A stretch of DNA of 41,690 nt from a virus: positions 1-41,690 of IMG/VR virus record IMGVR_UViG_3300002461_000119; one strand, given 5' to 3'. A program made the translations under genes and the position numbers. Position 1 is the stretch's first letter. Every line of letters starts with the position of its first letter. This document shows positions 1-41,690 of this stretch, piece by piece. The notes beneath the pieces are model-generated. The model was given only the letters and a program-made list of their open reading frames with translations. It was not told where the DNA came from and did no database searches.

Positions 1-94
1 CAAACTTAGGAACCTTTGTAGTGTCAAAGATACGGCTACCCATCGGAGTAAGGACACCATGAGGAGCGGTGTAAACTGTACGCCTATTACCACT
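1..94. repeat. terminal overlap, copy 1 (circular closure)
   Basis: Identical to 41597..41690. Lies inside the Sak4-like ORF. Confidence 0.9.
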
Positions 95-691
95 AGCAAG
101 CCCAACATAGTAAATCTCGCTCACGTTAAGGCCAAGAGGATTACGTACCTTTGCAGAAAGCATCATCGTCTGCCGGATGATTGATTTACCATCTTGAGCA
201 TACTCTGGATCATCAGCATGAGCAATGAAGAAACAGTGTTGTTTATTCTGACCTGTTGCACGAAGGATGCGAGTGATTACATCCATAGTGTGGCTATTGC
301 GAGCGCCCCAAGCAGCAAGGCCGGGAGCGTCGATCGAAGGAGTGAATGTGGCTGACTTACCAACTCCACGATTGATAGCATCAGTGATGCTAGCAGCAAC
401 AATGTTAGTGACGCTATCGACAATGACACTTTGATATGTATCCTTCTGTTGTACGATGAATGATGCAGCTTTCTTCGCTTGTTCGATCTGCTCACCAGCA
501 GGAAGAAGAGAGAAGTCAAGTAGATCGAAATCGTTACGGTGAGCTACGGAGAGGAAACCATCTGGGTCAAAGTTGATCAACAGTTTGCGACCCGGAAGGC
601 TCATTGCCCATGTTGTCTTGCCAGTCTTTGCATCACCCCAGATGACACCAGCAAGTCGGTGGACTAGATCAGCAGCACTAGTTGGTTGCAC
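1..691 (-). CDS. Sak4-like (AAA_24-type) RecA-fold ATPase, 5' part; ORF continues across the circular junction into 41690..41487
   Basis: Hand translation of the - strand: GTG at 691 with GGAG 7 nt upstream, no stop down to position 1 (checked codon by codon). N-terminal Walker A GDAKTGKTT. Absent from the ORF track only because it crosses the window edge. Confidence 0.7.
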   Translation of the reverse strand, partial: MQPTSAADLVHRLAGVIWGDAKTGKTTWAMSLPGRKLLINFDPDGFLSVAHRNDFDLLDFSLLPAGEQIEQAKKAASFIVQQKDTYQSVIVDSVTNIVAASITDAINRGVGKSATFTPSIDAPGLAAWGARNSHTMDVITRILRATGQNKQHCFFIAHADDPEYAQDGKSIIRQTMMLSAKVRNPLGLNVSEIYYVGLASGNRRTVYTAPHGVLTPMGSRIFDTTKVPKF

Positions 692-899
692 TTGGTTGCT
701 CCGTATCTGCTACATCGGATGTAATCATTTCAGCAAGTGCTTTTTGGATTTCATCTGAAAATTTTAAAAAGTTCTGCAAAACCTCGGGGTCGATAGAGAC
801 TGCGTGGTTCTCGTGATGGTTCACTGCAAGATTGATATGGTATCCATCGTAAGACGCATACACACCATCGCCAAGATAACGTGGTTCAGGAAGTGGCAT
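678..899 (-). CDS. hypothetical protein (73 aa)
   Basis: ORF track 678..923. Internal ATG at 899 preferred because AAGGAG lies 8 nt upstream. C-terminal ITSDVA is encoded by a P17 copy. Confidence 0.55.
   Translation of the reverse strand: MPLPEPRYLGDGVYASYDGYHINLAVNHHENHAVSIDPEVLQNFLKFSDEIQKALAEMITSDVADTEQPSATN
710..724. repeat. P17 palindrome copy
   Basis: CTACATCGGATGTAA, 1 mismatch. In CDS 678..899, read ITSDVA. 18 nt before GTG 691. Confidence 0.75.
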
Positions 900-1080: not shown

Positions 1081-2193
1081 TTACTCCTTTCTCAAGAAAG
1101 CTTTGAACTCGCTTGGGGACATTTCTTCACTGATAATCATCTGTTCCCACATTACTTGTTGGTCTTCACGTTGTGCGGAACATAGATCAAGCAATGCACA
1201 AGGACGGAAGTATCGGTTACAAGAGTGCGTAAACATAGGTGCGTCAATTGCTGCCTCGTCACGATACTGTGCCATTACATCCAATGTAAAGAGCGCAGTT
1301 GTCAAGAAGTTACCAACTGCTTCTCTGTCACGATGGATGGGAAAGTGCATATTAGGTGCACTCGTCTTACGCACAGGTAAGGCACTACCTATCAAGATAC
1401 ACTCGTCAGCAACTTCTGGGAAGTATGCTTGGAGTGCACCAATGTATCCACTCTGTTGATGACGAGTACGAAACTGTTCACGCCAACCATCACCCATCGT
1501 GCTAGTCGTTTTGTATTCACCGAGTTTAACACGTTTAGTTTCGGGGTTTTGATAGAGAACGTCACCAAGACCGATGAAACGGATTTGTTCTTTGTAAGGA
1601 TTGTTAAACTCACCTATTACATCGCATGTAAAGATTACGTCCATACTCTTTTCTACACCGATAGTCTTGGTCGGATCGTTCTCATCTTCAATGTAAATTG
1701 GAAACCGAGACAGGTTTGACAAGAAATATCCTGCAAGCTCAAACGCACAATGCTCAAGGTTTGCAAGAGTACGATTGCGATCGTTCTCGTCGTCGTAGAA
1801 GTCACTCGTAGCGATGACATCAACAGCGAGTTTCTCCAAAGCACGAGACGGGTTCTGTTTATACAGTTCAAGATACTTGTCAAACGACAGAGCCTCAAAA
1901 CGATGCTCTCCATAGAGACTGACACCATGAAAGCGTCCATGATCAGGGAGGCCTTGAACCGCCGCAATCTGCATAAGATTGAATGCTGCGAATACATCGT
2001 GCATCACAGAGCCAGCTTCGAGAGCCATTTGACGATAGCCAGTGACAAAGCGTTTGTGTTGCACGTTGTGGATAATGCCCCATTTGGGACACGTAGTCAC
2101 TGCCTCAACGAGAGAGCTAGTAACATATGGCATGGATGTCTTCGTTACATCCGATGGGGTGCGTTGCACTCTCCAGTCGAGTACGCGGGTCAA
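1081..2193 (-). CDS. PD-(D/E)XK (Cas4/RecB-like) exonuclease
   Basis: 370 aa. GLGD-x14-EYK nuclease signature. One N-terminal Cys (TTCPKW) plus C-terminal CNRYFRPCALLDLC resemble a Cas4-type Fe-S cysteine set. Adjacent to the Sak4-like ATPase. Confidence 0.65.
   Translation of the reverse strand: MTRVLDWRVQRTPSDVTKTSMPYVTSSLVEAVTTCPKWGIIHNVQHKRFVTGYRQMALEAGSVMHDVFAAFNLMQIAAVQGLPDHGRFHGVSLYGEHRFEALSFDKYLELYKQNPSRALEKLAVDVIATSDFYDDENDRNRTLANLEHCAFELAGYFLSNLSRFPIYIEDENDPTKTIGVEKSMDVIFTCDVIGEFNNPYKEQIRFIGLGDVLYQNPETKRVKLGEYKTTSTMGDGWREQFRTRHQQSGYIGALQAYFPEVADECILIGSALPVRKTSAPNMHFPIHRDREAVGNFLTTALFTLDVMAQYRDEAAIDAPMFTHSCNRYFRPCALLDLCSAQREDQQVMWEQMIISEEMSPSEFKAFLRKE
1275..1289. repeat. P17 palindrome copy
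   Basis: TTACATCCAATGTAA, perfect. In the exonuclease CDS, read FTLDVM. Confidence 0.9.
1617..1631. repeat. P17 palindrome copy
   Basis: TTACATCGCATGTAA, perfect. In the exonuclease CDS, read FTCDVI. Confidence 0.9.
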
Positions 2194-2540: not shown

Positions 2541-2959
2541 AGCATTTTCCTTTCCATTGCTCGTTGTTTATCTTCTTGTTTACCGCGATCGTGGTTACAC
2601 TTTTGACATGCTCCAACTTGACGGATCATTTCTTTGTTGATGTATGCACCACGACGGTTTGTGTTACGACTATCCAAGTGATCAATTGTGCATTCTGTTG
2701 GTGGTATCTTTCCATCTGGGAACATACCAAAGGTCATAGGTTGTTGACACCAGAAGCAGAAACCACGTTGAACCCACCAAAGACGGAAACGTTTAAGCAC
2801 TTTGTCACTTGGGTAGTGTGTGAAGTTCTTGTCACCCAACCGCTCCAACATCAATGCTTGTATCTCGTTGAGAGCGAATGGGTAGTCTTTAGGATTAAAG
2901 ATGTATTTTGTGTTACCATCTTTGATACGGATGTATTCTCGATCACGGCGGTTTGCCAT
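2537..2959 (-). CDS. HNH endonuclease
   Basis: 140 aa. CFWC ... IDHLDSRNTN ... CQKCNHDRG, i.e. CxxC / DH / N / CxxCNH. Confidence 0.8.
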   Translation of the reverse strand: MANRRDREYIRIKDGNTKYIFNPKDYPFALNEIQALMLERLGDKNFTHYPSDKVLKRFRLWWVQRGFCFWCQQPMTFGMFPDGKIPPTECTIDHLDSRNTNRRGAYINKEMIRQVGACQKCNHDRGKQEDKQRAMERKML

Positions 2960-2982
2960 AAAATAACTCCCATATTGCGATG

Positions 2983-2997
2983 TTACATTGGATGTAA
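2983..2997. repeat. P17 palindrome copy
   Basis: TTACATTGGATGTAA, perfect. Intergenic, 23 nt before HNH start 2959. Confidence 0.9.
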
Positions 2998-3066
2998 GAC
3001 AAGACCAGTAAGAGAATTAAGTAGTTTCCATAAAAATCATACATGGTCTTGTCTCCTCTGTTGTGT

Positions 3067-3399
3067 TTATTTGTACGGTCCAATGATTACGTCAGGATCA
3101 GTGATTTGACAGTGTTTCTTCTCACGAAGAATTAGACACTGTGCTCGTGCTGCTTGTTCACGAAACTCTTGTGTCTCAAAACCCCAAGCGACGCGAAACC
3201 TGTCGCAAGTGCAGATGGAGTAATACTGTCGAACATAATTAGAATAGACAGTATCACCATCATTCGGAGGAGTGGGCACTTCTGGTGGTTGCGTAGGTGG
3301 AGGAGGAGGAGGAGGAGGAGGAGGAGGCTCACAAGGTTGATCACCACAAGCCAAAGCAGGTGAAGCAATCAACAAGAGCAAGAATAGAAGTTGTTTCAT
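3067..3399 (-). CDS. putative lipoprotein with poly-proline linker
   Basis: ORF track 3067..3414. ATG 3399 preferred (AAAGGAA upstream). Signal peptide MKQLLFLLLLIASPALAC with a lipobox-like ALAC, then 11 consecutive Pro and a Cys-containing C-terminal domain. Confidence 0.7.
   Translation of the reverse strand: MKQLLFLLLLIASPALACGDQPCEPPPPPPPPPPPTQPPEVPTPPNDGDTVYSNYVRQYYSICTCDRFRVAWGFETQEFREQAARAQCLILREKKHCQITDPDVIIGPYK
3301..3327. repeat. (AGG)9 trinucleotide repeat, (CCT)9 on the coding strand
   Basis: Nine perfect AGG units. Encodes the poly-Pro run of the lipoprotein. Confidence 0.9.
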
Positions 3400-3417
3400 T
3401 GCTATTCCTTTCATTTG

Positions 3418-3432
3418 TTACACTGGATGTAA
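3418..3432. repeat. P17 palindrome copy
   Basis: TTACACTGGATGTAA, 1 mismatch. Intergenic, 18 nt before start 3399. Confidence 0.75.
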
Positions 3433-3436
3433 CAGG

Positions 3437-3736
3437 TTAGAGACGAGAGAGACGATTGTTTGTATCGTGAAGCTGGTCAGTAAGACGATCAACAGCAATC
3501 GCCGCGATTTTGATACGATCAATCGCCAAGAGTGAAGGACTGGTAGCATTCTTCGCTTCTGTTGGTTGCGGAGGTTGAGGCCCAAGAAGTCTGTCAGTAT
3601 TATCAATTGTACGATTTACAGCATGATGAAGTCTTGAGACATAATTCTCAAGCTCTCCAGCAAGTTGATCAAGCACACTTGGCTCTTGTTCTCTCATTGG
3701 TTGTGTTGCGACAGAACCAGCCATAAGTCCACTCAT
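3437..3736 (-). CDS. hypothetical protein (99 aa)
   Basis: ORF track. 4-nt overlap with the downstream ORF (3733..3942). Helical/coiled-coil-like composition. Confidence 0.6.
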   Translation of the reverse strand: MSGLMAGSVATQPMREQEPSVLDQLAGELENYVSRLHHAVNRTIDNTDRLLGPQPPQPTEAKNATSPSLLAIDRIKIAAIAVDRLTDQLHDTNNRLSRL

Positions 3737-3942
3737 TTTGTGTTTCCTTTCTGTTTCTTTACATCCGGTTTAAGGACATCGTGAAGTATTTTGACCGCAC
3801 CTTGGAGTGAGTAGAGCATAGTCCAAAGCTCATTCTTCGATAGCGGCCGCTCGACTTCGAGAGCAAGAGCGATCTTACCTCGAATGTTTTGTAGACGTTC
3901 GTCTACTTTAGGAAGAAATTCAGACTGACGCGGTGGTATCAT
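3733..3942 (-). CDS. hypothetical protein (69 aa)
   Basis: ORF track 3733..4008. ATG 3942 preferred (GGAG 7 nt upstream). The longer version would overlap the upstream gene by 89 nt. Confidence 0.5.
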   Translation of the reverse strand: MIPPRQSEFLPKVDERLQNIRGKIALALEVERPLSKNELWTMLYSLQGAVKILHDVLKPDVKKQKGNTK

Positions 3943-4252
3943 CAGGTTTCTCCGGTGCGAACAAGTCTTGAGGATTGTAGCCAAGACGGGTAGCAAGTGC
4001 GTCCACACCAGTCATGATTGCAGCAGTGACATCCGCACCACGAGCAGCAACAGTAGCAATCTGTAGCATAGATGAACGAAGTTCCTTGATTTCTCGCTCT
4101 TGCTCACGGAGAGAATGATGCTGGTTCATGATGACCTTAGCAAGATCAGGATGCACTTGCGCACTCTTGAGAGCTTTGTAGACATCTTCACCAACCATCA
4201 TTGTCAGTGATGATTGATTGATTGCTGTTTGTAGTGCGTCACGTTTCGTCAT
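3920..4252 (-). CDS. hypothetical protein (110 aa)
   Basis: ORF track 3920..4291, which starts at TTG. The first ATG is at 4252, 4 nt after the upstream stop. Confidence 0.55.
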   Translation of the reverse strand: MTKRDALQTAINQSSLTMMVGEDVYKALKSAQVHPDLAKVIMNQHHSLREQEREIKELRSSMLQIATVAARGADVTAAIMTGVDALATRLGYNPQDLFAPEKPDDTTASV

Positions 4253-4256
4253 GATG

Positions 4257-4565
4257 TTATAGCAGCCTTTCTTGGTTCTCAATGTTAGCAATGTTGGAGT
4301 TGCTACTTGAGAGGTTTTCGATTGCGTTCTCTAGTTTTTGTAGAGCCTCATTGACCTTGGCTTTTGCGTTCTCAACTCTCGTTACACGGGATGTAAAGAG
4401 GTCAAGTTCTTTACCTTTGAGGGATTGAAGCTTGCCTTCGGTCTTTTCCTTGTAAGATTGAACAAGGACGAGACGGCGAGAGCGCTTGATCTGGATAAAG
4501 GTTTCTGCATCTTGGATTGTTTGCTTGCGTAGGTCAGGTGAAGCATAGATATGTGGTTCGGTCAT
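4257..4565 (-). CDS. hypothetical coiled-coil protein (102 aa)
   Basis: ORF track. K/E/L-rich heptad-like sequence. 4-nt overlap with the upstream ORF. Confidence 0.6.
   Translation of the reverse strand: MTEPHIYASPDLRKQTIQDAETFIQIKRSRRLVLVQSYKEKTEGKLQSLKGKELDLFTSRVTRVENAKAKVNEALQKLENAIENLSSSNSNIANIENQERLL
4382..4396. repeat. P17 palindrome copy
   Basis: TTACACGGGATGTAA, 1 mismatch. In CDS 4257..4565, read FTSRVT. Confidence 0.75.
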
Positions 4566-4813
4566 GTCTCTTGTCCTTCTACAAGCATCGCACGGATTTG
4601 TGCATCACAATCTATTTGTGCAGAAATTCTAGCACTATCCATGAGAGGAAACACTTCTGTACTAACGCCATTCAGTTGTTGACCAATGAGACGAAACCAG
4701 CGCCATCCATCAAAGTCATGAGCAAGATAATAAGTATAGCCCATTACATGAGCTACAGCACTTTGTTTACTTTCTTCCCATACTAAAGATTTAACTTGAG
4801 AAGGAACGGTCAT
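4562..4813 (-). CDS. hypothetical protein (83 aa)
   Basis: ORF track. 4-nt overlaps on both sides. Confidence 0.6.
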   Translation of the reverse strand: MTVPSQVKSLVWEESKQSAVAHVMGYTYYLAHDFDGWRWFRLIGQQLNGVSTEVFPLMDSARISAQIDCDAQIRAMLVEGQET

Positions 4814-5229
4814 ACTTGGTTTCCTTGATAACTAGTAGACAAAGACACAGGAGGCTTTGACTTCTTGACTGTCTTCTCTGCCATCTTATGAAGCTCTTGA
4901 GCAGAGAGGTCAAACTTCTCTGCCACAGCTTTGATGAATGCGTCCTTGTCGAAGCTTTCACGAGGGTTGTTGACTTTGCCTTTAAGTGTTACACCGGATG
5001 TAACGAGTAGAGTAGTCTCTGGCATAGGTTCATTGAATTTATGTTCAAAGGCTTCTTTGATTTCTTCGGCTGATTTCTCAAAGCGTTTCGCCACACCGAG
5101 AAGAGTATGATGAATAAACAAGTCTTGGACTTGCTTTGCAATGACGTGATTACTTGGCGGAAAGATCAACTCAGTAGCAAGACGAGTGACATCACGACCA
5201 AGAGTTGCAGGTTCGAAGTGGTATTCCAT
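4810..5229 (-). CDS. hypothetical protein (139 aa)
   Basis: ORF track. GAAAGGAA upstream of the ATG. A P17 copy lies 16 nt upstream. Confidence 0.65.
   Translation of the reverse strand: MEYHFEPATLGRDVTRLATELIFPPSNHVIAKQVQDLFIHHTLLGVAKRFEKSAEEIKEAFEHKFNEPMPETTLLVTSGVTLKGKVNNPRESFDKDAFIKAVAEKFDLSAQELHKMAEKTVKKSKPPVSLSTSYQGNQV
4989..5003. repeat. P17 palindrome copy
   Basis: TTACACCGGATGTAA, 1 mismatch. In CDS 4810..5229, read VTSGVT. Confidence 0.75.
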
Positions 5230-5245
5230 GGAGTTGTTCCTTTCG

Positions 5246-5260
5246 TTACACTGGATGTAA
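5246..5260. repeat. P17 palindrome copy
   Basis: TTACACTGGATGTAA, 1 mismatch. Intergenic, 16 nt before start 5229. Confidence 0.75.
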
Positions 5261-5264
5261 GAGT

Positions 5265-5429
5265 TTATTGTTCGGACATTACGTCTTCAAAGTCTTCGGA
5301 CGGGATTGCTATGAAGAATTTAACTTCTACATCGCTGCCAAAAGCCGCAAGAGCATCTTCAAGATCATGTCCATCCATCCAGAAGACTTCGCCTTTTGCA
5401 TCTGTGACCTGCATTACAGGATTATGCAT
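5265..5429 (-). CDS. hypothetical small acidic protein (54 aa)
   Basis: Below the ORF-track cutoff. Hand translation MHNPVMQVTDAKGEVFWMDGHDLEDALAAF... GAGGAG 7 nt upstream. Starts 1 nt after the upstream stop. Confidence 0.45.
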   Translation of the reverse strand: MHNPVMQVTDAKGEVFWMDGHDLEDALAAFGSDVEVKFFIAIPSEDFEDVMSEQ

Positions 5430-5430
5430 G

Positions 5431-5670
5431 TTAAGTCTCCTCTGTCACATTGGGTGTATCGACGTGGTGTGTATTCAATACGTTCCAGTAAGCAGAAAAC
5501 TCATGGAAACGTTGTGTGATTGCTTCCACGTCGTCTCGTATATCACCAATGTCTACACCTTTTAGATGGTCAGGATCGGACATCAATTGAATGTTGAGTT
5601 TGCTTGACGCCTGTTTAAGTTGATTGTAAGCACCACGCATCGAACGTCTTACATGAGCTTTATCAATCAT
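5431..5670 (-). CDS. hypothetical protein (79 aa)
   Basis: ORF track. GGAGGAAAA upstream. 4-nt overlap with the upstream ORF. Confidence 0.6.
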   Translation of the reverse strand: MIDKAHVRRSMRGAYNQLKQASSKLNIQLMSDPDHLKGVDIGDIRDDVEAITQRFHEFSAYWNVLNTHHVDTPNVTEET

Positions 5671-5894
5671 GCTTTTCCTCCTTCCATATCTGTTACACTG
5701 GATGTAAAGTCTGGTTTGATTGTCACACGATGCAATTTGCCGTCGGGGTATAAATCAATATACGTCCCAAGCGTGAGTGTAGGATTATAAGCCGTCCACA
5801 AGCGCCAACGCCCGTGCTGCGGATCATAATGCAGCACGGGTGGTTTGCTTTGTGAAAAGACTTGAGCTAATCCTAAGCGGATTTCTTTTGTCAT
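5667..5894 (-). CDS. hypothetical protein (75 aa)
   Basis: ORF track. GAGGAAAA upstream. First gene after the strong sigma70-like promoter at 5978..6006. Confidence 0.6.
   Translation of the reverse strand: MTKEIRLGLAQVFSQSKPPVLHYDPQHGRWRLWTAYNPTLTLGTYIDLYPDGKLHRVTIKPDFTSSVTDMEGGKA
5693..5707. repeat. P17 palindrome copy
   Basis: TTACACTGGATGTAA, 1 mismatch. C-terminus of CDS 5667..5894, read FTSSVT. 22 nt before start 5670. Confidence 0.75.
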
Positions 5895-5977
5895 GTTTTC
5901 CTCGGTCTTTGGCGTGTATGTTGTTACTTATCGCCAAAAGTTGTGATCAGCACAACTACTGTAGTCTTGATTATGCA

Positions 5978-6006
5978 GTTATAACACAGAGAACAAACTG
6001 TGTCAA
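5978..6006 (-). promoter_or_regulatory. sigma70-type promoter (extended -10)
   Basis: On the - strand: TTGACA, 17-nt spacer ending TGT, TATAAC. Lies in the 108-nt gap between 6003..6209 and 5667..5894. Confidence 0.55.
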
Positions 6007-6209
6007 GCATTAATTTCTTCAGTCTCAGCCCTGTCAGTCGTAGACCAAGTAACAATAGCACCACTGTATTCTGTAACATCCACAACAGCTTGCTTGGGTG
6101 CATTAAAATGATCACGAATTATATCGCACAATTCAGCCGCACTAAGCTCACCTTTCATTGTAGTTGTGATTGTCTTGTCTATAAAGATAGTTTTCTTTGC
6201 CATTTTCAT
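6003..6209 (-). CDS. hypothetical protein (68 aa)
   Basis: ORF track. AAAGGAGAAA upstream. P17 copy 17 nt upstream. Confidence 0.6.
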   Translation of the reverse strand: MKMAKKTIFIDKTITTTMKGELSAAELCDIIRDHFNAPKQAVVDVTEYSGAIVTWSTTDRAETEEINA

Positions 6210-6226
6210 TTCTCCTTTGTGTTTCT

Positions 6227-6241
6227 TTACATTGGATGTAA
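6227..6241. repeat. P17 palindrome copy
   Basis: TTACATTGGATGTAA, perfect. Intergenic, 17 nt before start 6209. Confidence 0.9.
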
Positions 6242-6244
6242 GGA

Positions 6245-6592
6245 TTAAAATCGCAATTCTAATCCTGCAACAGCACCAACAATATCACCTTCTATCGCTG
6301 GTGCAACAAAAAGTGAAACCTTTTTCTTGATGTCTACGCCCGCACGAATAAATGGTAAAACGTCATGACCAGAGTAACCAGTAACAGCACCAATTTCAAG
6401 CCAGAGAGGACTTTGTTTGTCTTTTAGTTTGATGCCGCCATAAACAGAGACATTGCTTTCACTGTTATAGTAAACTCCAGCGATTAGACCTGTTTCTGTT
6501 ACATCGCATTTAACAGCTGGATGTACCTCGTTATACTCATTGGACAAACCAATGTGGTTAGACAGTGCGATTGCGAATAATATATTACACAT
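6245..6592 (-). CDS. hypothetical protein with outer-membrane beta-barrel-like C-terminus
   Basis: ORF track 6245..6712. ATG 6592 preferred (AAAGGA upstream, P17 16 nt upstream). Alternating hydrophobic pattern and terminal ...GLELRF resemble an OMP beta-signal. Confidence 0.5.
   Translation of the reverse strand: MCNILFAIALSNHIGLSNEYNEVHPAVKCDVTETGLIAGVYYNSESNVSVYGGIKLKDKQSPLWLEIGAVTGYSGHDVLPFIRAGVDIKKKVSLFVAPAIEGDIVGAVAGLELRF
6499..6513. repeat. P17 palindrome copy
   Basis: TTACATCGCATTTAA, 1 mismatch. In CDS 6245..6592, read VKCDVT. Confidence 0.7.
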
Positions 6593-6608
6593 TGGGTTGA
6601 TCCTTTCT

Positions 6609-6623
6609 TTACATCGGATGTAA
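6609..6623. repeat. P17 palindrome copy
   Basis: TTACATCGGATGTAA, perfect. 16 nt before start 6592. Lower edge of the non-coding island. Confidence 0.9.
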
Positions 6624-6668
6624 CGTTGTCTTCGCTTAACGTTATGACTTTTAGTCACAAGGTAAAGA

Positions 6669-6685
6669 GAAGTTGTAACAAGCGA
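6669..6685. repeat. 17-nt direct repeat, copy 1
   Basis: GAAGTTGTAACAAGCGA, identical to 6838..6854. Inside the non-coding island 6593..6887. Confidence 0.8.
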
Positions 6686-6837
6686 TCTTCTCTTACGTCT
6701 GCATTCTGTCACGTTTGCTTCAAATCGAGACGACTTAACGGCCTCACCTCAAAGCTGGTTATACCTCGACAGATAGGATCAGGCTAATCGTGGATTTTTC
6801 AATCCTACACCTGCTTTTGCCACATGCAGACGAAAGG

Positions 6838-6854
6838 GAAGTTGTAACAAGCGA
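6838..6854. repeat. 17-nt direct repeat, copy 2
   Basis: GAAGTTGTAACAAGCGA. Overlaps the hairpin AACAAGCG-N10-CGCTTGTT, which abuts a P17 copy. Confidence 0.8.
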
Positions 6855-6869
6855 CCTTGCGACCGCTTG

Positions 6870-6884
6870 TTACATTGGATGTAA
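6870..6884. repeat. P17 palindrome copy
   Basis: TTACATTGGATGTAA, perfect. 3 nt after the stop of 6888..7811. Upper edge of the non-coding island. Confidence 0.9.
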
Positions 6885-13375: not shown

Positions 13376-15335
13376 ACTCCAAGTAGCCCAAGAGGCTGGA
13401 GTTGTAGAAAGCGATAACGACTTTTACACAGTCTTTAACACAACACGTTTGCTAAATGAGAATGCTATTCCTGTTCCTCCTAAACTTGGAGAGCGTTTGA
13501 AGAAGCAGCATGATGCGACTGTTGCTGTGTATAAAGAATATCACGACGATTGGCGTAATGCTGTTAAGGTCTTCAACGAAGAAGGCTCTGTTGCTGATTT
13601 TGCAAAGACTGGTGTAACGAAAGACAATTATGTCCGTCAGAATGTGCAGTCATTGATCGATTTCACATATCTTCGCAACCCGAATGCTGAGTTCACTCCA
13701 CTTCGGGATGTTGAAGAGAACGAACCTGATGACCTTTTCGTAAAAGCACTCTCTGCTACATTGGATGTAGTAATTTCTGAAAACAACATTCATGGTATCG
13801 GCCTTCGTAAGTTCGTTCAACGTCAACTCGTTACATCCCATTTAACAAACCACGGAGTTGTGAAACTCGACTACGTTCCTAAGACAGGTAGTCTTGACGA
13901 TGTTCGTGAGCTTTATGCTCTTGCACAGAAAAAGATCAAAGAAGAAGAAGACCCAGATAAACAAGCTCATCTTTACAGTCTCCTCGAACGGCTGTCAGAA
14001 GAAATGCAAAACCGTCGTCCGATGGGTCTTCGGCTTAAGAACGTGTCAGCTTTTATGTTCTTTGCTGACCCTTTGACTACAAAGGACGATCTTAGCGACG
14101 CTAGTTTCACTTTTGAGTACGAATACCTCAAGGAAAGCTACATCCAGAGTGAATTTCTCACCTACGATGAGGCTGGCGAATGCTGGTACTATCGCTATGA
14201 CAAGTCAAAGAAATTTACAGGTGGTGCTTCTCGTTCGTCAGGCAATGCTCAAGATCGTGCAAAAGAAGCACTAGTTGATCAACTTATGCCAGAAGCTAAA
14301 GAGAAAGAAATTGAATACTACCGTACAGATACTATTCTCTGTGTCTGGTGGCATGACAAGATCACGAAACAGAAGTATCTTTATGTTGTAGACGATTGGG
14401 AAACGCCTCTCTGGGTGTACGAAGATGAGTTGGGTCTTTCTCAATTCTTTCCATATTTTCTGCTTGCGTTCTCTCCGTCGATTGGGAATATTCTCCGTTA
14501 CAGTGAGGCATCTTACTACATTCCTCACCAAAATCGCATCAATGAAAATGCAAAGCAGAAAGATTTCATCCGTCAAAATGGTTTCTCTACTCTTGTCTAT
14601 AATCCAACAGCTGTTGATCCTCAGGAGGTTACGAAGCTTCTTAATGCATTACGTAAGCCAAAGAAAGATGGTATCCGTGCATTGCCTTTGAAGCTTAAGA
14701 ACCCAGAGCAAAAACTAGTTGACGCTTTTGAGCCTTTGATACCTCCGACGGCACAGATGTCTGAAATGTTTGATGATCGCCACAGTGTTGAAATGATCCA
14801 ACGTGGAAGTCGTCTTAATAGTGCTGCTCAAGGTGGAGAGTTCAAAACGAATACTACGAATGACGCAGTTGCTGCGTATAATGAAGCAGCTGAGACAAAA
14901 TTCTCTTCTGTTACGGATATGATTGAAGAAACTACGGCTCGTCTCTTTTGGGCAATTACTGAGGTAATCGTCTCGAAGTTCGACAAAGATTACGTAACTA
15001 CAATTATTGGTGCGAAGAAAGGTGCTAACTTTCAACAGATGGCTATTGTTGACTTTAATAGTCAATACATTATGCGCATCGAAGCAGGGAGTAGTGAGAA
15101 ACCGAATAGTACAGCTAAGAAGAAAGAAGCTGTTCAGATCATTCAGATGCTTGGACAGTTTGGCACTGCAGCACCAATGACGATTATCTCAATCGTTGCG
15201 AAGCTGCTTAGAAAAGTCTTCTCACCGCATATGGTGACAGATGCAGAGCTTGATACTTTAAAACAAGAAGGCACGGCTGCGATGAACAAAGGCGTGTCAA
15301 CTACTCAACAACCGCAACAAGGACAACCACAATGA
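13356..15335 (+). CDS. portal protein
   Basis: 659 aa ORF directly after terL, overlapping it by 20 nt, and upstream of scaffold and capsid. Call rests on size and synteny. Confidence 0.75.
   Translation: MEDLDTKLQVAQEAGVVESDNDFYTVFNTTRLLNENAIPVPPKLGERLKKQHDATVAVYKEYHDDWRNAVKVFNEEGSVADFAKTGVTKDNYVRQNVQSLIDFTYLRNPNAEFTPLRDVEENEPDDLFVKALSATLDVVISENNIHGIGLRKFVQRQLVTSHLTNHGVVKLDYVPKTGSLDDVRELYALAQKKIKEEEDPDKQAHLYSLLERLSEEMQNRRPMGLRLKNVSAFMFFADPLTTKDDLSDASFTFEYEYLKESYIQSEFLTYDEAGECWYYRYDKSKKFTGGASRSSGNAQDRAKEALVDQLMPEAKEKEIEYYRTDTILCVWWHDKITKQKYLYVVDDWETPLWVYEDELGLSQFFPYFLLAFSPSIGNILRYSEASYYIPHQNRINENAKQKDFIRQNGFSTLVYNPTAVDPQEVTKLLNALRKPKKDGIRALPLKLKNPEQKLVDAFEPLIPPTAQMSEMFDDRHSVEMIQRGSRLNSAAQGGEFKTNTTNDAVAAYNEAAETKFSSVTDMIEETTARLFWAITEVIVSKFDKDYVTTIIGAKKGANFQQMAIVDFNSQYIMRIEAGSSEKPNSTAKKKEAVQIIQMLGQFGTAAPMTIISIVAKLLRKVFSPHMVTDAELDTLKQEGTAAMNKGVSTTQQPQQGQPQ
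13756..13770. repeat. P17 palindrome variant
   Basis: CTACATTGGATGTAG; both outer bases changed in a compensating way, so it is still a palindrome. Portal CDS, read ATLDVV. Confidence 0.6.
13831..13845. repeat. P17 palindrome copy
   Basis: TTACATCCCATTTAA, 1 mismatch. Portal CDS, read VTSHLT. Confidence 0.7.
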
Positions 15336-16429
15336 ACGACGATTTCCTCTCCGATGTGAGCACTGCTATCGAAACAGTGAACACGAATGTTCCTGCACCG
15401 ACTAATGTATCGGACCTTGAAACGCAGGAAAGTGTTCTCAATGTTCTAGAGGCTCATGAGAAAAAACCTGTAGAAAAGGCAAAAACGCCTCCTGCAAAAC
15501 CCGTTACACCCGATGTAAAGACCGGACAGGAAGAGCCAGACACTTCTAAACAGCAACAACCGAAATCTGACGCTAATCAACAACAGCAACAAAAGCCCGA
15601 CGAAAAGAACAAGAAGACTGTTCCTTACATGGATCGCTTCTTGCAACAAGATGACAAAAACAATCTTGTTACTGCTGATGGCACAATCATTGCTGCTGCT
15701 GGTGCGGCACGTACTTTCTTTGAAAAACTCAAGAGCGAAGCACGTACCGAGCGTGATAAGAACCGTGAATTGTCTTTCAAGACTATCCAACTCGGCGAGA
15801 AATTCGTTGAGCTTAACAATGCATATGAAGAGTTGAAAAAAGACCCAGCTCGTGAGAGCATAGAAAAACGTACTAACATGCAAGGTCAAGAGCTTGAAGA
15901 AGCAATTGATCTTATGCGTGAATATAAGGTTAATCCCGTAGGCGCGATCAAACGTATCTTGACACAAGCGCAACTACGTGGTATTAATCTTAAAGAGATT
16001 GGGATAAACAACGGTGGGCTTGATCCTGCGGCTGTTCGTTCGATGCTGGAAGAGATTATCAGCAAACAAAGTGGTCAAGAAAAAACCACTCAGATACAGC
16101 CTAATCAAGAAGCCGCAGTTCGAGAGGCGCAAACCTTCCTCGAAAACTTCCCAGAAGCAGCAGAGCATACCGAGACACTTGCCGCTGCAAGACGAAAATT
16201 CCCGAATAAGACGTATGCTGAGTTGTGGCACTCTTTCCAAATCTGGGAACAGCAGCAGCTTGAACAGCAGGAAACTGCTCAAGCACAAGAAGCTATCCAG
16301 AAACGTAAGACGCCGCCTCAACAGCAACGACAACAGCAACCCGGTCCTGTTACATCCGATGTAAAGGACTATTCGAAACTTTCCTTTAGCGACATTGCTA
16401 ATGGCCTCAAAAAGGACTTTGGAGTATGA
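15332..16429 (+). CDS. scaffolding protein
   Basis: 365 aa, Q/E/K-rich low-complexity and coiled-coil sequence between portal and capsid. 4-nt overlaps on both sides. Confidence 0.6.
   Translation: MNDDFLSDVSTAIETVNTNVPAPTNVSDLETQESVLNVLEAHEKKPVEKAKTPPAKPVTPDVKTGQEEPDTSKQQQPKSDANQQQQQKPDEKNKKTVPYMDRFLQQDDKNNLVTADGTIIAAAGAARTFFEKLKSEARTERDKNRELSFKTIQLGEKFVELNNAYEELKKDPARESIEKRTNMQGQELEEAIDLMREYKVNPVGAIKRILTQAQLRGINLKEIGINNGGLDPAAVRSMLEEIISKQSGQEKTTQIQPNQEAAVREAQTFLENFPEAAEHTETLAAARRKFPNKTYAELWHSFQIWEQQQLEQQETAQAQEAIQKRKTPPQQQRQQQPGPVTSDVKDYSKLSFSDIANGLKKDFGV
15504..15518. repeat. P17 palindrome copy
   Basis: TTACACCCGATGTAA, 1 mismatch. Scaffold CDS, read VTPDVK. Confidence 0.75.
16350..16364. 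repeat. P17 palindrome copy
   Basis: TTACATCCGATGTAA, perfect. Scaffold C-terminus, read VTSDVK. 61 nt before capsid ATG 16426. Confidence 0.9.
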
Positions 16430-17392: not shown

Positions 17393-17839
17393 ATGTTTGG
17401 TCAAGACAATGCCGGTGCAACTCTTTCCCACGTTACACGCCGTGTAATAGGAGAGGTTCTCACCGAAGTCACCAAGTTTAACACTGATACTGAGAAGAAC
17501 GAAAAGAAATACGTTCCTCTTGCAGACCCTGTCATTGTGTTCCTTCCTAGCGGTAGTGTCGTGCTTCTTAGTGAAGCTGAGGCAGAGCGCCGTGGACTTA
17601 TGGAAGAACCTGACATCCTCGGCATTGCCGAAGTCAATGACACCAAAAGTGCAGCTGGCAAGTGGAAATTTGCCATGAATGATAAACAACGTCATGCGGC
17701 GTGGTTGATCATGGAAAAAGCTGTTATTCGCGCTTGTACTTCTCGTGGTGGTTATCCTTTGGATGCTACTAAAGCAAAGTTCAGCGAAGACAGCATCTTC
17801 TATGAACAGCCCGTCACCAAGAAGAAGGAAGTGGCATAA
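17393..17839 (+). CDS. hypothetical structural-module protein (148 aa)
   Basis: ORF track. AGGAG upstream. Between the capsid gene and the next head gene. Confidence 0.6.
   Translation: MFGQDNAGATLSHVTRRVIGEVLTEVTKFNTDTEKNEKKYVPLADPVIVFLPSGSVVLLSEAEAERRGLMEEPDILGIAEVNDTKSAAGKWKFAMNDKQRHAAWLIMEKAVIRACTSRGGYPLDATKAKFSEDSIFYEQPVTKKKEVA
17433..17447. repeat. P17 palindrome variant
   Basis: TTACACGCCGTGTAA; compensated inner change, still a palindrome. CDS 17393..17839, read VTRRVI. Confidence 0.6.
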
Positions 17840-18485: not shown

Positions 18486-18500
18486 TTACATCCAATGTAA
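18486..18500. repeat. P17 palindrome copy
   Basis: TTACATCCAATGTAA; the 17-mer 18485..18501 is perfect. Intergenic, followed by hairpin 18503..18528. Confidence 0.9.
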
Positions 18501-22328: not shown

Positions 22329-22583
22329 ATGAGTACAACAATCCGTGAATTTGTTAACGCTCCTACTACATGGCAACTTGCTGCGACAGGTCCTGTGACC
22401 GTGATCTTGTCTAGTACAAATGGTCCGGGTTTGTTCATCCACACTACAGCAAGTACACCACCACTAACACAAGAAGGACACCCAATCAAAGAAGGCGAAA
22501 ACGTTACATTCAATGTAAAGACCGGTGAGTTCTTGCATGTCAAAGCTGATCGTCCTGACACAAAGATAATCGTGACAGATTGA
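22329..22583 (+). CDS. hypothetical protein (84 aa)
   Basis: ORF track. Between the two fibre genes. Confidence 0.55.
   Translation: MSTTIREFVNAPTTWQLAATGPVTVILSSTNGPGLFIHTTASTPPLTQEGHPIKEGENVTFNVKTGEFLHVKADRPDTKIIVTD
22504..22518. repeat. P17 palindrome copy
   Basis: TTACATTCAATGTAA, perfect. CDS 22329..22583, read VTFNVK. Confidence 0.9.
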
Positions 22584-25204: not shown

Positions 25205-25219
25205 TTACATTCGATGTAA
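25205..25219. repeat. P17 palindrome copy
   Basis: TTACATTCGATGTAA, perfect. Intergenic, just after terminator 25165..25196. 21 nt before start 25241. Confidence 0.9.
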
Positions 25220-28770: not shown

Positions 28771-28785
28771 TTACATCCGATGTAA
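28771..28785. repeat. P17 palindrome copy
   Basis: TTACATCCGATGTAA, perfect. Intergenic, 12 nt before ATG 28798. Confidence 0.9.
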
Positions 28786-41145: not shown

Positions 41146-41490
41146 TTATTGCGGGGCGCTTTCATCACCGGTGAAATGCGCAATTGTTTCGTGAAGCTTT
41201 TGCATAGCGTCGGGATCGTTGAGATTGATTTCTACAATGTCAAGACCTGTAGCATCATAGTTCTCTTCATCAAATTCAAATACCTTGAACACTGTCATGA
41301 CTTCGTTAGCAGCAAAGCTTTTCATGGTGTCTGAGACACCTTCAAGTCTGTGAACAGCAGTCATTGCGTCCCACATATTGAGAGGAGTGGCTTCAAGGCA
41401 AGAAACCGCAACCTGTAAATGATGGACAAAAAGTTTGATTGCGTCATCTTGCAAAATCATTAGTGGTGTGGTGGCTAACTCTTTATTCAT
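41146..41490 (-). CDS. hypothetical protein (114 aa)
   Basis: ORF track. ATGA overlap with the end of the Sak4-like gene. Confidence 0.6.
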   Translation of the reverse strand: MNKELATTPLMILQDDAIKLFVHHLQVAVSCLEATPLNMWDAMTAVHRLEGVSDTMKSFAANEVMTVFKVFEFDEENYDATGLDIVEINLNDPDAMQKLHETIAHFTGDESAPQ

Positions 41491-41690
41491 TTCGGAACCT
41501 CCGTTAGTTTACTACGTTTCGCTTTGAAAGCGTCGAATATCTTTACAAGACTTGTAGGTTGTTCTTCGTCAGGCTTTTCGATTGAGTATGGTAACTCAAA
41601 CTTAGGAACCTTTGTAGTGTCAAAGATACGGCTACCCATCGGAGTAAGGACACCATGAGGAGCGGTGTAAACTGTACGCCTATTACCACT
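41487..41690 (-). CDS. Sak4-like ATPase, 3' part of the ORF that starts at 691 (41597..41690 duplicates 1..94)
   Basis: Frame continuity checked by hand: ...KVPKF|ELPYSIEKPDEEQPTSLVKIFDAFKAKRSKLTEVPK, stop TGA at 41489..41487. Confidence 0.7.
   Translation of the reverse strand, partial: SGNRRTVYTAPHGVLTPMGSRIFDTTKVPKFELPYSIEKPDEEQPTSLVKIFDAFKAKRSKLTEVPK
41597..41690. repeat. terminal overlap, copy 2 (circular closure)
   Basis: Identical to 1..94. Confidence 0.9.

Follow-up and report, generated by a model that had tools for sequence, protein, structure and literature searches.

Why does a short palindrome recur directly upstream of so many start codons in this genome, and does it act there as an RNA hairpin? 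The window, i.e. the whole stretch of DNA that was analysed, is a complete circular podovirus-like genome of 41.6 kb. A sequence-only reading of it had listed 16 copies of the core TTACAT-NNN-ATGTAA ending 3-25 nt upstream of a start codon and had proposed an RNA-level role for them. The start-linked "hairpin" is one face of a genome-wide set of palindromes, half of which are intragenic.

A palindrome dispersed over the whole genome

About 54 copies of the 17-bp palindrome GTTACAT-NNN-ATGTAAC are present across the entire circular genome. Scanning the window with TTACANNGGATGTAA, allowing up to two mismatches, yielded 96 strand matches compared to 1.0 expected; the dispersed palindrome is real and far above chance. 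The 3-bp spacer is strict, as TACA-N5-TGTA was found 52 times and each other spacing from N0 to N11 zero to three times, and the centres of the half-sites lie 10 bp apart, corresponding to one helical turn. The copies, on average one per ~770 bp, are distributed more regularly than expected for random placement (CV 0.72 vs 0.98, P 0.007), and the largest interval without a copy is 2346 bp. The copies, to which no strand is assigned, are as follows ((-), minus strand; entries are copies unless called degenerate).

710-724, copy CTACATCGGATGTAA, 3' end of ORF 678-899(-), 18 nt before start 691
1275-1289, within ORF 1081-2193(-), common frame
1617-1631, within ORF 1081-2193(-), common frame
2983-2997, intergenic, 23 nt before start 2959
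3418-3432, intergenic, 4 nt past stop, 18 nt before start 3399
3759-3773, degenerate, TTTAA arm, within ORF 3733-3942(-), 22 nt before start 3736
4382-4396, within ORF 4257-4565(-)
4989-5003, within ORF 4810-5229(-), kept in relative L105
5246-5260, intergenic, 4 nt past stop, 16 nt before start 5229
5693-5707, 3' end of ORF 5667-5894(-), 22 nt before start 5670, L105 identical
6227-6241, intergenic, 3 nt past stop, 17 nt before ATG 6209 or 23 before ATG 6203
6499-6513, degenerate, within ORF 6245-6592(-)
6609-6623, start-proximal edge of 295-nt gap, 16 nt before start 6592
6870-6884, 3 nt past stop 6888, right arm shared with 14-bp terminator-like stem
7873-7887, within ORF 7823-8035(-), degenerate orthologous copies in L096 and L102
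8093-8107, TTGACA hexamer (minus strand) 6 nt downstream
8438-8452, degenerate, leader of promoter TTGTCT-17-TGnTATAAT (8516-8488), 16 nt before start 8421
8563-8577, 5 nt past stop 8583, extended to 12-bp palindrome
9044-9058, intergenic
9500-9514, ~10 nt upstream of -35 TTGACT, promoter 9489-9462(-)
9646-9660, intergenic
10261-10275, overlaps -10 (TACATT) of promoter-like site 10296-10269(-), 25 nt before start 10235
10498-10512, 1-kb divergent noncoding region, adjoins 18-bp palindrome and parS site
10865-10879, divergent noncoding region
11178-11192, leader of + promoter 11022-11050
11211-11225, leader of + promoter 11022-11050, 20 nt before TerS start 11246
11859-11873, TerS/TerL gap, 4 nt past stop, 11 nt before start 11885
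13831-13845, degenerate, within portal ORF
15504-15518, within ORF 15332-16429, orthologous copies in L096 and L103
16350-16364, within ORF 15332-16429, MCP start 61 nt downstream
17433-17447, within ORF 17393-17839, orthologous in five genomes, each with its own lineage arm variant
18486-18500, 5 nt past stop, then GC-rich hairpin
19246-19260, CTACAC arm, within ORF 19200-20852, orthologous in L103
19924-19938, hybrid arms TTACAT / TTGTAA, within ORF 19200-20852, orthologous in L096 and L102
21066-21080, within ORF 20849-22306, orthologous in L102
22504-22518, within ORF 22329-22583
24325-24339, last codons of ORF 24189-24353, 10 nt before start 24350
25205-25219, intergenic, 21 nt before GTG 25241
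25440-25454, last codons of ORF 25241-25477, 24 nt before start 25479
27439-27453, 3 nt before ATG 27457
28771-28785, 4 nt past stop, 12 nt before start 28798
29018-29032, within 1349-aa ORF
31364-31378, within 1349-aa ORF, L105 identical
32854-32868, 6 nt past stop 32847, directly before bidirectional terminator 32876-32897
33643-33657, within ORF 33596-33817(-)
34739-34753, last codons of ORF 34725-34967(-), 10 nt before start 34728
35365-35379, within MazG-like ORF 34970-35419(-)
35716-35730, within PolA ORF, kept in L105
36910-36924, within PolA ORF, kept in L105 and L106
38239-38253, within HTH-protein ORF 38162-38476(-), codons of putative recognition helix
38940-38954, in frame within unlisted ORF 38737-39057(-), homologue of 106-aa L105 protein
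40448-40462, TTACAC / TTGTAA, within ORF 40326-40550(-)
40601-40615, 12 nt past stop 40628, adjoins GC-rich hairpin
41101-41115, intergenic

Gene boundaries and gene interiors

Distances between copies and start codons were measured on a heuristic gene map built for this analysis, and all 16 distances of the sequence-only reading were reproduced on this independent map. The map also placed the copies at 710, 5693, 24325, 25440 and 34739 within the last codons of the upstream gene, as had been described, and the AGGA of the centre of copy 27439 is indeed the only SD-like sequence, 8 nt before ATG 27457. Start 691 was counted as real because a Sak4/AAA_24-like gene, which crosses the ends of the circular assembly, begins there. 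The degenerate copies 3759 and 8438 likewise lie near starts (22 and 16 nt).

Compared with randomised placement, start proximity held up against both general expectations: a start codon follows within 3-25 nt for 17 of the 54 copies, whereas uniform placement predicts 2.0 and none of 2000 shuffles gave more than 8; among the 26 intergenic copies there are 12 such cases vs 2.8 expected (p 6e-6). Much of the effect shrank when each copy was shuffled inside its own intergenic interval, where 7.6 start-proximal copies are expected (p 0.014), because copies occupy spacers of only 24-41 nt. Equally strong is a post-stop signal that had not been stressed: 10 of the 26 intergenic copies begin 0-8 nt past a stop codon (1.3 expected, p 2e-7). 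The proposed association with gene boundaries in general thus stands, both after stops and before SD sequences. Copies 18486, 32854 and 40601 were confirmed to follow stop codons beside hairpins (by 5, 6 and 12 nt), and including 6870 at least four copies directly adjoin terminator-like hairpins past stops. Beside 8093 and 9500, which had been placed upstream of -35 boxes, the -35-like hexamers TTGACA and TTGACT were found; at the best sigma-70-like promoters, copies overlap the -10, precede the -35 or occupy the leader.

An RNA element with a 7-bp stem and a 3-nt loop, acting as processing site, end protection, standby or coupling element or as operator of an RNA-binding regulator, would account for the 17 copies directly 5' of an SD and the 10 directly 3' of a stop, and the copies beside post-stop terminator-like hairpins also suit a role at RNA 3' ends. 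However, about half of all copies (28-29) are intragenic, ~20 of them at least 40 nt from any start, and many are distant from any gene boundary. All 28 coding copies of the window are read in a single frame, as are nearly all coding copies of the relatives L096, L100, L105 and L106. In this common frame the palindrome encodes x-Thr-x-x-Val-x, and at orthologous sites the protein sequence is altered to fit the DNA motif.

Arms and centre in related phages

In related uncultured phages the element recurs with altered arms (TTACAA..TTGTAA, CTACAG..CTGTAG and TTAAA..TTTAA). These symmetric changes are lineage-specific (TTACAT, TTACAA, TTACAY, CTACAG, TTAAA), the rest of the core being near-invariant, and at orthologous codons the variant was switched in situ between lineages. 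The relative L104 possesses an unrelated 7-1-7 palindrome instead. In every relative the divergent noncoding region holds 5-7 copies. The window and L105 share 71% nucleotide identity; in their orthologous copies the arms are 90.6% identical, compared to 70.8% for the centre and 69.6% for the flanks. A stem-loop would likewise show symmetric arm changes and arms that are conserved around a free centre.

Pairing of the arms was tested on ten related genome segments with about 270 copies. Watson-Crick counts at positions ±2, ±7, ±8 and ±9 equalled the independence expectation (seven genomes), i.e. the half-sites vary independently; in L103 the arm pairs were C/A 6, T/A 6, C/G 5 and T/G 3, and in L100 A/C 6 vs A/T 1. 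At variable arm positions of the sense strand no excess of G·U (64) over A·C (80) was observed. As judged from the copies compared, the pairing counts give no RNA-pairing signature, and the stem sequence is invariant although an element defined by shape only could covary. The RNA hairpin is of marginal stability (-3.9 kcal/mol), reaching p>0.5 in only 30 of 54 mRNA contexts. For the functionally analogous palindrome of L104, -1.4 kcal/mol is too weak for a useful hairpin, although its order SD-palindrome-ATG could, if folded, shorten an over-long SD spacing. RNase III needs about 20 bp of double-stranded RNA, for which the stem is too short; no Rfam family matches the palindrome, and several copies lie on or upstream of promoter hexamers. 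The loop evolves neutrally, and a loop-reading RNA-binding protein is unlikely because the centre changes at background rate. Intragenic copies, lack of covariation, the drifting centre, the weak hairpin and the overlap with promoters have thus weakened, but not refuted, the RNA-level role, which we now consider rather unlikely.

One feature in favour of RNA is a strand bias of the central base, which is not predicted by a perfectly symmetric duplex reader. C prevails over G on the sense strand in the window (37:12), L105 (23:7) and L106 (18:7), over all genomes (133 vs 77) and also among intergenic copies (15:3). The bias may arise because SD-like GGA/AGG is avoided in mRNA; the sole start-proximal G-type copy, 27439, indeed serves as SD. 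On the circular map the central base forms two orientation blocks, which are shifted by 1-2 kb relative to the points where transcription switches; in the L096 phage there are four blocks. The centre of copy 9500-9514 is oriented opposite to those of the neighbouring copies.

A proposed reading of duplex DNA and a candidate reader

Architecture, distribution, frame lock, conservation pattern, absence of pairing covariation, lineage-specific arm variants and a conserved winged-helix gene argue for a putative operator-like site recognised in its duplex form by a symmetric dimeric, sequence-specific protein, a reading to which we assign a probability of about 0.5; we infer from them that a protein binds, which one it may be and what its binding would do. 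Each monomer would read one 7-bp half-site, the 3-bp centre not being read base-specifically. Selection would maintain about one site per 770 bp genome-wide, and sites would therefore accumulate wherever sequence is tolerated: in short stop-to-SD spacers, giving the association with starts, in the terminal codons of genes, on and near early promoters and in the late-operon leader. Within genes, they would be tolerated in the one frame that gives a harmless peptide. The closest known analogue, of the same architecture, is an unexplained 17-bp 7-3-7 repeat of Cluster O mycobacteriophages, for which a dimeric DNA-binding protein was inferred by the authors (PMC4351075). If the sites are bound, the likely consequence is genome-wide occupancy. 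Such occupancy could, as at stoperators, switch transcription units off or insulate them, promoters being occluded and elongation blocked at gene boundaries beside terminators; another possibility is that it labels or organises the phage DNA for replication and packaging.

The dimer reading the duplex might instead be a nucleoid-associated or regulatory protein of the host, recruited or titrated by the phage, with arm variants tracking hosts. In favour, the lineages that differ in their arms probably have different hosts, and the noncoding region that holds some of the copies also contains a perfect host-type parS, showing that the phage does carry sites for host proteins; the phage-encoded binder is itself a candidate only. 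On the other hand, the window has no tRNAs and a single, unclassified MAG match as pointers to a host, the exact 17-mer is iterated in no IMG/VR contig, and a conserved phage winged-helix protein exists. We regard a host reader as quite unlikely.

Very unlikely is a hairpin in single-stranded DNA serving a strand-specific transaction, either as N4-type promoter or as a signal for priming or loading on the template of the lagging strand. N4-type hairpin promoters have a 5-7-bp stem, a 3-nt loop and a central purine on the template strand, and the palindrome matches this geometry, with a central G on the template strand in 37 of 52 copies; the two orientation blocks, an even spacing of Okazaki-fragment order and the lack of a recognised primase among the proteins scanned also fit. 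Nevertheless, the search for a phage RNA polymerase found none; the 1349-aa virion protein matched nothing in Pfam, PHROG or PDB and showed none of the polymerase motifs for which it was searched, and good sigma-70-like promoters are present in the early region. To our knowledge, ~54 sites by far exceed the number in any hairpin-promoter set. The DNA fold reaches only -3.4 kcal/mol and lacks covariation, the orientation blocks are inconsistent among relatives, and the central base is not conserved from one orthologous copy to another.

Least probable is a border repeat promoting cassette exchange or insertion, or the footprint or target of a selfish nuclease: copies are enriched at both gene edges, flank longer intergenic inserts (6609/6870, 8438/8563, 10261/11211) and lie beside varying gene content (an HNH gene in the window only, ThyX in L105 only), but the ~20 intragenic copies far from starts, some syntenic over long divergence, purifying selection on arms at fixed positions and the even spacing speak against it, as do the failure to find an element-specific recombinase, the absence of the HNH gene from relatives bearing the element and the Cluster O repeats, for which no link to rearrangements was seen (PMC4351075).

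If a dimeric protein reads the duplex, it is probably phage-encoded, since the half-site sequence changes between lineages while the sites stay at orthologous positions. The leading, unproven candidate, for which the case is circumstantial, is the last gene of the early/replication operon:

32905-33165, minus strand, 86-aa winged-helix protein, candidate palindrome reader

A covariation of Arg36 to Lys with the C-to-A change in the core was considered and is contradicted by L110. The protein is conserved in L105, L106, L108, L109 and L110, and a small winged-helix protein is present in every palindrome-bearing relative whose corresponding genome region was retrieved, a co-occurrence that is confounded by phylogeny. 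Its AF2 model (pLDDT 85) has the topology H1-S1-H2-H3-S2-wing-S3, and Foldseek returned PadR, MarR and RTP matches with TM 0.5-0.67.

Placement of the palindrome on a complete phage genome

The first 94 nt of the window (1-94) were found to be an exact repeat of the last 94 (41597-41690) when both ends were compared. The window is therefore a circular assembly, and the terminal repeat is where the assembly overlaps itself; the complete genome, circular or circularly permuted, measures 41,596 bp. A heuristic gene map, built from ORFs, Shine-Dalgarno (SD) scoring and strand coherence, comprises two blocks:

11246-32847, plus strand: structural block with TerS, TerL, portal, major capsid protein (MCP), tail fibres and a 1349-aa virion protein
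from 10235 leftwards across the coordinate origin to 32905, minus strand: early/replication block

The blocks point away from each other across 1 kb of noncoding DNA (10236-11245) and meet at a bidirectional terminator (32876-32897). The early block encodes PolA with a fused UDG-like domain, a RecD-like helicase, an exonuclease-like protein, a MazG-like protein, a dNMP kinase-like protein, an HNH nuclease and a Sak4/AAA_24-like protein, the gene of which, join(41487..41596, 1..691) on the minus strand, spans the assembly junction. No close DNA relatives were detected among GenBank phages by blastn, the window MCP gave no tblastn match, and PolA and TerL reached at best 28% identity to any named phage; the clade is one without a cultured member. 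Neither a tRNA search nor an Rfam search of the window returned anything. No integrase or RNA polymerase was found among the window proteins scanned, and Pfam and PHROG scans of the proteins tested gave no integrase or CI-like repressor; the phage looks lytic. Searching IMG/VR with PolA yielded nothing, and a scan of genome contigs gave a single match, an unclassified MAG contig.

The palindrome, as a duplex the 17-mer GTTACATCCGATGTAAC, consists of 7-bp inverted arms separated by an exact 3-bp spacer, the arms being near-invariant and the centre variable in the sequence logo, and its half-site centres lie 10 bp apart, one turn of B-DNA. The core TACA-N5-TGTA occurs 52 times in the window, compared to at most three occurrences for each other spacing from N0 to N11. 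Allowing one mismatch in (Y)GTTACAT-NNN-ATGTAAC(R), 54 credible copies were counted where approximately one is expected. They occupy both genome halves at a density of 1 per 0.77 kb and are evenly spaced, with a mean gap of 770 bp, a coefficient of variation of 0.72 (0.98±0.12 for random placement, P 0.007) and a largest gap of 2346 bp compared to a random mean of 3537 bp. Across IMG/VR the exact 17-mer gave only single chance matches.

Copies (named by their start coordinate) were divided between intergenic DNA (25-26 of the 54) and ORFs (28-29), and about 20 of the ORF-internal ones lie at least 40 nt from the next start. All 28 ORF-internal copies share one frame, GTT ACA xxx xAT GTA ACn, encoding V/F/I/L-T-x-x-V-T/K/I/N. 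The second frame contains TAA, and the third is open and would force Tyr and Cys; if both open frames were equally used, the probability of such a lock would be ~4e-9. The same frame prevails in relatives, for example in 32 of 33 copies of the related phage L100.

From the sequence alone, 16 copies had been placed 3-25 nt upstream of start codons, and every distance quoted was reproduced on our gene map, including the 18 nt of copy 710, for which the downstream start (691) opens the junction-crossing Sak4-like gene. Copy 27439, a G-type copy (see below), itself forms the SD of ATG 27457, as had been observed. In our count, a start lies 3-25 nt beyond the end of 17 of the 54 copies, with 2.0 expected under uniform placement. 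When each intergenic copy was shuffled within its own gap, 12 start-proximal copies were observed against 7.6 expected (p 0.014); most of the start association thus follows from gene spacers that are only 24-41 nt long. The association is real, and as a description of placement it is incomplete, given the large ORF-internal share and the copies that directly follow stops. Of the 26 intergenic copies, ten directly follow a stop codon, at 0-8 nt (1.3 expected, p 2e-7), and the element therefore hugs both gene edges. Longer gaps carry copies at both ends (6609/6870, 8438/8563, 10261/11211).

Strong sigma-70-like promoters were found only between 8 and 11 kb. The copies at promoters and terminators, among which the positions of 8093 and 9500 near -35 hexamers and of 18486, 32854 and 40601 behind stops beside hairpins had been noted correctly beforehand, are as follows:

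10261: on the -10 of a promoter-like site before the first early gene
9500: ~10 nt upstream of a -35
8093: 6 nt upstream of a TTGACA hexamer
8438: inside a leader
11178 and 11211: in the leader of a rightward TTGACA-17-TAGTAT promoter before TerS
6870, 18486, 32854 and 40601: behind a stop codon and ahead of a GC-rich terminator-like hairpin

The order of stop, copy and terminator-like hairpin recurs in the related phages L105 and L106.

Evolution of the arms among related phages

Metagenomic contigs of 40-47 kb with MCP and PolA homologues number in the hundreds. Down to 59% MCP identity, an iterated palindrome with a TACA-N5-TGTA core and lineage-specific arms is present in every relative. 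The arm types, including two palindromes that lack this core, are distributed as follows (L numbers are loci of related uncultured phages; L096 and L106 represent one phage):

Arm types of the iterated palindrome
TTACAT arms: L105, L107
TTACAA arms: L096/L106, L098, L099, L102, L108, L110
TTACAY-NNN-RTGTAA: L103
CTACAG-NNN-CTGTAG: L100, 2 copies per kb, mostly inside genes
TTAAA-N5-TTTAA: L109, departing from the core; locus found via the winged-helix protein described below
TGATTAA-N-TTAATCA: L104 (52% MCP identity), an unrelated palindrome with 19 copies in 21 kb, mostly intergenic

The L104 palindrome often overlaps stop and start codons (e.g., 3453, 10954, 12112, 12813), frequently providing the TAA stop of one gene and abutting the next ATG, with the SD upstream of the palindrome. 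Relatives obtained from IMG/VR via TerL (L086-L095, 44-59% identity) showed no iterated palindrome in stretches of 4-12 kb, nor did L111 (MCP 43%) in the stretch examined.

Several copies occupy orthologous codons in as many as five genomes, and there each genome shows the arms of its own lineage; sites therefore persist and are re-tuned in place, with the protein sequence yielding to the DNA motif. The site in the gene after MCP, for instance, reads VTRRVI, VTRLVK, VTRVVI, VTRAVS and VTRDVI, and copy 19924 is a half-converted hybrid in which an Ile codon holds conversion back. Between the window and L105, which share 71% nucleotide identity, orthologous arms are 90.6% identical, compared to 70.8% for the centre and 69.6% for the flanks. 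The array thus consists of evenly spaced sites under purifying selection that are tolerated in one reading frame and carry lineage-specific half-sites, and it is denser where the DNA is unconstrained, at the edges of genes and near promoters.

Duplex DNA site or RNA hairpin, and candidate readers

The sequence-only reading had proposed for the copies before starts a role at the RNA level, as hairpins at the edge of ribosome-binding sites. Arm conservation, an unconstrained centre and symmetric arm changes from lineage to lineage agree with such a stem-loop and with a duplex DNA site alike, and a bias of the central base relative to gene direction speaks for the stem-loop. Nevertheless, the stem-loop was supported by no test that could be run. 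At the variable arm positions (±2, ±7, ±8, ±9) Watson-Crick pairs occurred as often as expected under independence in seven genomes; in L103 the pairs at ±2 were C/A (6), T/A (6), C/G (5) and T/G (3), and in L100 A/C (6) exceeded A/T (1). A selected RNA stem is expected to tolerate G·U and to avoid A·C. Counts over ten genome segments (~270 copies), read on the sense strand, gave 64 G·U and 80 A·C. Thus, neither covariation nor an excess of wobble over mismatch on the transcribed strand, by which a structured RNA would be recognized, was seen for the element. The predicted hairpin is also of marginal stability, with an energy for the 17-mer of -3.9 kcal/mol as RNA and -3.4 as DNA (-1.4 for the L104 palindrome with its 1-nt centre), and its pairing probability exceeded 0.5 in 30 of 54 mRNA contexts. 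Independent arm variation and the G·U and A·C counts make the proposed RNA-level role less probable.

A distance of 10 bp between half-site centres is that of classical operators of dimeric helix-turn-helix proteins. The contrast in conservation between arms and centre, the independence of the half-sites, the missing G·U excess, the weak hairpin and the strict spacing favour a model in which two identical protein subunits would read two half-sites on duplex DNA. The centre drifts like the flanks, which suggests that it is not read base-specifically. Overall, binding of a dimeric protein to the sites in duplex DNA has, in our estimate, a probability of about 0.5.

The bias of the central base is pronounced. 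On the sense strand the ratio of C to G at the centre was 37:12 in the window, 23:7 in L105, 18:7 in L106 and 133:77 overall (p 1e-4), and intergenic copies share it (15:3); in 37 of 52 copies the template strand accordingly carries G. Read on the plus strand of the circular map, G-type copies form a block from 35365 through the origin to 8438 and C-type copies one from 9500 to 34739, the block borders lying 1-2 kb away from the points at which transcription switches. The L096/L106 phage has four such blocks, and L100 has no bias. Codon usage was rejected as the cause, as Ser codons TCC (60) and TCG (63) are used about equally, and so was base composition, the GC skew being opposite in sense between the two arms. 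A possible trivial cause is that SD-like GGA/AGG is avoided in mRNA.

A protein reading the sites as duplex DNA would probably be encoded by the phage. Few small early proteins are common to the window, L105 and L106; one of them is the 86-aa product of 32905-33165 (minus strand), the last gene of the early operon; the family of this protein comprises 23 representative clusters. AF2 with a 27-sequence alignment predicted a canonical winged-helix topology (H1-S1-H2-H3-S2-wing-S3) at pLDDT 85; the model from a 4-sequence alignment was unusable (pLDDT 47). Foldseek neighbours were PadR (5h20), MarR/MepR/ZitR (ZitR 6fi9), ArsR and B. subtilis RTP (1j0r/1bm9), with TM 0.5-0.67, E 0.01-0.1 and 10-20% identity, a match at fold level only. 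Among Pfam and PDB sequences, profile searches with the family detected nothing significant. PadR and MarR dimers, and RTP at Ter, are winged-helix dimers on dyad sites of 15-20 bp; the 86-aa candidate would share its predicted fold with polar roadblocks such as RTP at Ter and with PadR/MarR operator-binding proteins. All loci found via the winged-helix protein (L108, L109, L110) carry an iterated palindrome, but this association is confounded by phylogeny because all three belong to the same clade. Covariation of residue 36 (Arg/Lys) with the C/A change in the core was considered and is contradicted by L110. By its conservation and predicted fold, the 86-aa protein is the leading candidate for the binder, though one that we regard as more likely wrong than right.

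The 104-aa product of 38162-38476 has a clear C-terminal helix-turn-helix (…LMELTGLSRHTTSDVIKRH…), and copy 38239 coincides exactly with codons of the putative recognition helix, as does a copy in the L105 orthologue (…SREATYNVIKRH…). Among the window, L105 and L106, it is present in the first two only, and it is the weaker candidate because it is absent from L106, a phage of the TTACAA type.

Known systems, possible action and further features

The closest analogue is the 17-bp dyad repeat of Cluster O mycobacteriophages, 5'-TGTTCGGNNNCCGAACA, which has the same 7-3-7 geometry, invariant arms and a variable centre and occurs in 34 copies in Corndog, 14 of them intergenic, 10 near gene 5' ends and 10 deep in genes (Cresawn et al. 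2015, PMC4351075). A dimeric DNA-binding protein was the inference of its authors, who were sceptical that the repeat acts in transcription initiation and assigned it no function; these phages, too, are without integrase (PMC4351075). Apart from the strand bias of its centre, the present element fits this account. Both systems thus have more than 30 copies, many of them intergenic, a third to half in ORFs and some near gene starts, and both phages appear to be lytic; a dimeric DNA-binding protein would suit either one. The differences are that Cluster O comprises prolate siphoviruses of Mycobacterium whereas ours is an uncultured 41.6-kb podovirus-like phage with an unrelated repeat sequence, that the density there is ~1 per 2 kb compared to 1 per 0.77 kb, and that little evidence of orientation was reported there whereas here the centre is biased to gene direction. 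Arms that differ between lineages, the lock to one frame and a statistically strong proximity to stops and starts were found only here.

Cluster A stoperators, bound by L5 gp71 and its relatives, are asymmetric 13-14-bp sites of a monomeric immunity repressor of temperate phages (PMC9283540, PMC6550527). They resemble the array in being dozens of genome-wide repressor-type sites, often at gene boundaries, with an orientation correlated with transcription and a specificity that evolves between related phages. They serve as the best model for the possible action of genome-wide sites, through elongation block and silencing. Identity with stoperators was rejected as the element is symmetric and only its centre is biased; unlike stoperator phages, moreover, this phage yielded no integrase or immunity module among the proteins scanned and looks lytic.

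SAS and ESAS of Cluster K mycobacteriophages are short repeats beside many translation starts; SAS, an asymmetric 13-mer with the SD inside it, keeps to a single orientation at 3-7 bp from starts and is confined to non-structural genes (Pope et al. 2011, PMC3203893). The position beside starts of many genes and the absence from unrelated genomes are common to both, and for the ESAS inverted repeats RNA pairing likewise found no support (PMC3203893). The element cannot be equated with SAS, being palindromic, 3-25 nt from starts with the SD downstream in 15 of 16 cases, and half in ORFs; unlike SAS it is located upstream of the SD (except at 27439) and in both genome halves.

Other systems agree less well. 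The hairpin geometry of the 7-bp stem and 3-nt loop, with G at the template-strand centre in the majority of copies, matches that of N4-type hairpin promoters, which have a 5-7-bp stem, a 3-nt loop and a central purine on the template strand, are read by a phage (virion) RNA polymerase and number only a few, each upstream of early genes. This origin was rejected since no RNA polymerase was detected among the proteins scanned and the 54 sites, half in ORFs, are spread over early and late regions; an N4-like virion RNA polymerase in the 1349-aa protein found no support. CsrA/RsmA binds GGA in an mRNA hairpin loop, with the SELEX consensus RUACARGGAUGU; here the GGA strand is antisense for most copies, and the ACA-GGA spacing is off by 1 nt. 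REP/BIME elements (extragenic only, 30-40-nt imperfect palindromes of host chromosomes) differ from a 17-bp, phage-lineage-specific element with half of its copies in ORFs, and RNase III sites were dismissed because at least one of their defining features is missing.

The element is therefore best filed as another case of the dispersed dyad-symmetric phage repeats, a kind already known and functionally unexplained. The phenomenon has a precedent; what appears to be new is the comparative evidence for a selected, co-evolving, genome-wide array, namely that the sites are individually under selection and kept at orthologous codons at the protein's expense, that half-sites switch in concert between lineages and that spacing is even.

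If the sites are bound as duplex DNA, the ~54 sites might become occupied late in the early phase. Occupancy would then occlude early promoters (10261, 9500, 8093) and set up roadblocks at operon junctions beside terminators, as with Cluster A stoperators (PMC9283540); alternatively, it might organise or mark the phage DNA. Extending this, we tentatively propose, with the odds against us, that this widespread clade of uncultured podophages has a self-contained "site array plus reader" system, in which ~50 even sites per genome, pushed even into coding sequence in a single frame, would be read by a small winged-helix dimer that co-evolves in specificity with all of them at once. As a genome-wide insulator or a polar roadblock, the array would keep transcription units apart and bring transcription into step with replication; alternatively, it would be a self-mark on the phage DNA. 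If true, this would provide a function for dispersed phage palindromes including the Cluster O repeats, which have been without one for a decade. If confirmed, the array would be a genome-wide regulatory or architectural layer in a phage clade common in the environment, and would provide a natural setting in which to study how a DNA-binding specificity and ~50 targets co-evolve; the clade makes the function of the array directly testable and offers a concrete candidate reader. For annotation, a palindrome beside ribosome-binding sites is not necessarily an RNA element.

Several further features were observed. The divergent noncoding region holds a perfect host-type parS site, TGTTTCACGTGAAACA at 10539-10554 (consensus TGTTNCACGTGAAACA); the identical 16-mer is present in the same region of L099 (4149-4164) and was not found in L096, L102, L103, L100 or L104, and no ParB domain was seen among the window proteins scanned. 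Between the parS site and copy 10498 lies an 18-bp perfect palindrome, TGAATGAACGTTCATTCA (~10514-10531), and a strong intrinsic terminator is located on the plus strand at 10750-10785; with these two, the 1-kb gap looks like a control or origin region. A direct repeat of ~21 nt, GCTTGTTACAACTTC(C/T)CTTT, occurs at 6837-6858 and 6661-6683, the former forming the 3' half of a 14-bp terminator-like stem, the 5' half of which is shared with copy 6870. A small RNA might be encoded in the surrounding 295-nt gap (6593-6887), which is bounded on either side by a motif copy.

The 1349-aa virion protein (28798-32847) at the end of the structural operon gave no Pfam, PHROG or PDB sequence match, keeps its size in relatives (1235-1349 aa) and is, judged by position, probably a T7 gp16-like ejected core protein. 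A nucleotide-metabolism cluster at 33814-35419 encodes dNMP kinase-like, WYL-domain and MazG-like pyrophosphatase proteins and adjoins PolA with its N-terminal UDG-like domain; the L105 counterpart of the cluster is at 12611-13339. ThyX is additionally present in L105, and the HNH endonuclease (2537-2959) in the window alone. ORF 3067-3399 encodes a predicted lipoprotein with a signal peptide, a Cys lipobox and a run of 11 prolines, the latter encoded by a GGAGGAGG… repeat at 3297-3330. ORF 6245-6592, not far away, is similar to the C-terminal portion of a PHROG family carrying the annotation PagP (lipid A acylation), a hint of a Gram-negative host.
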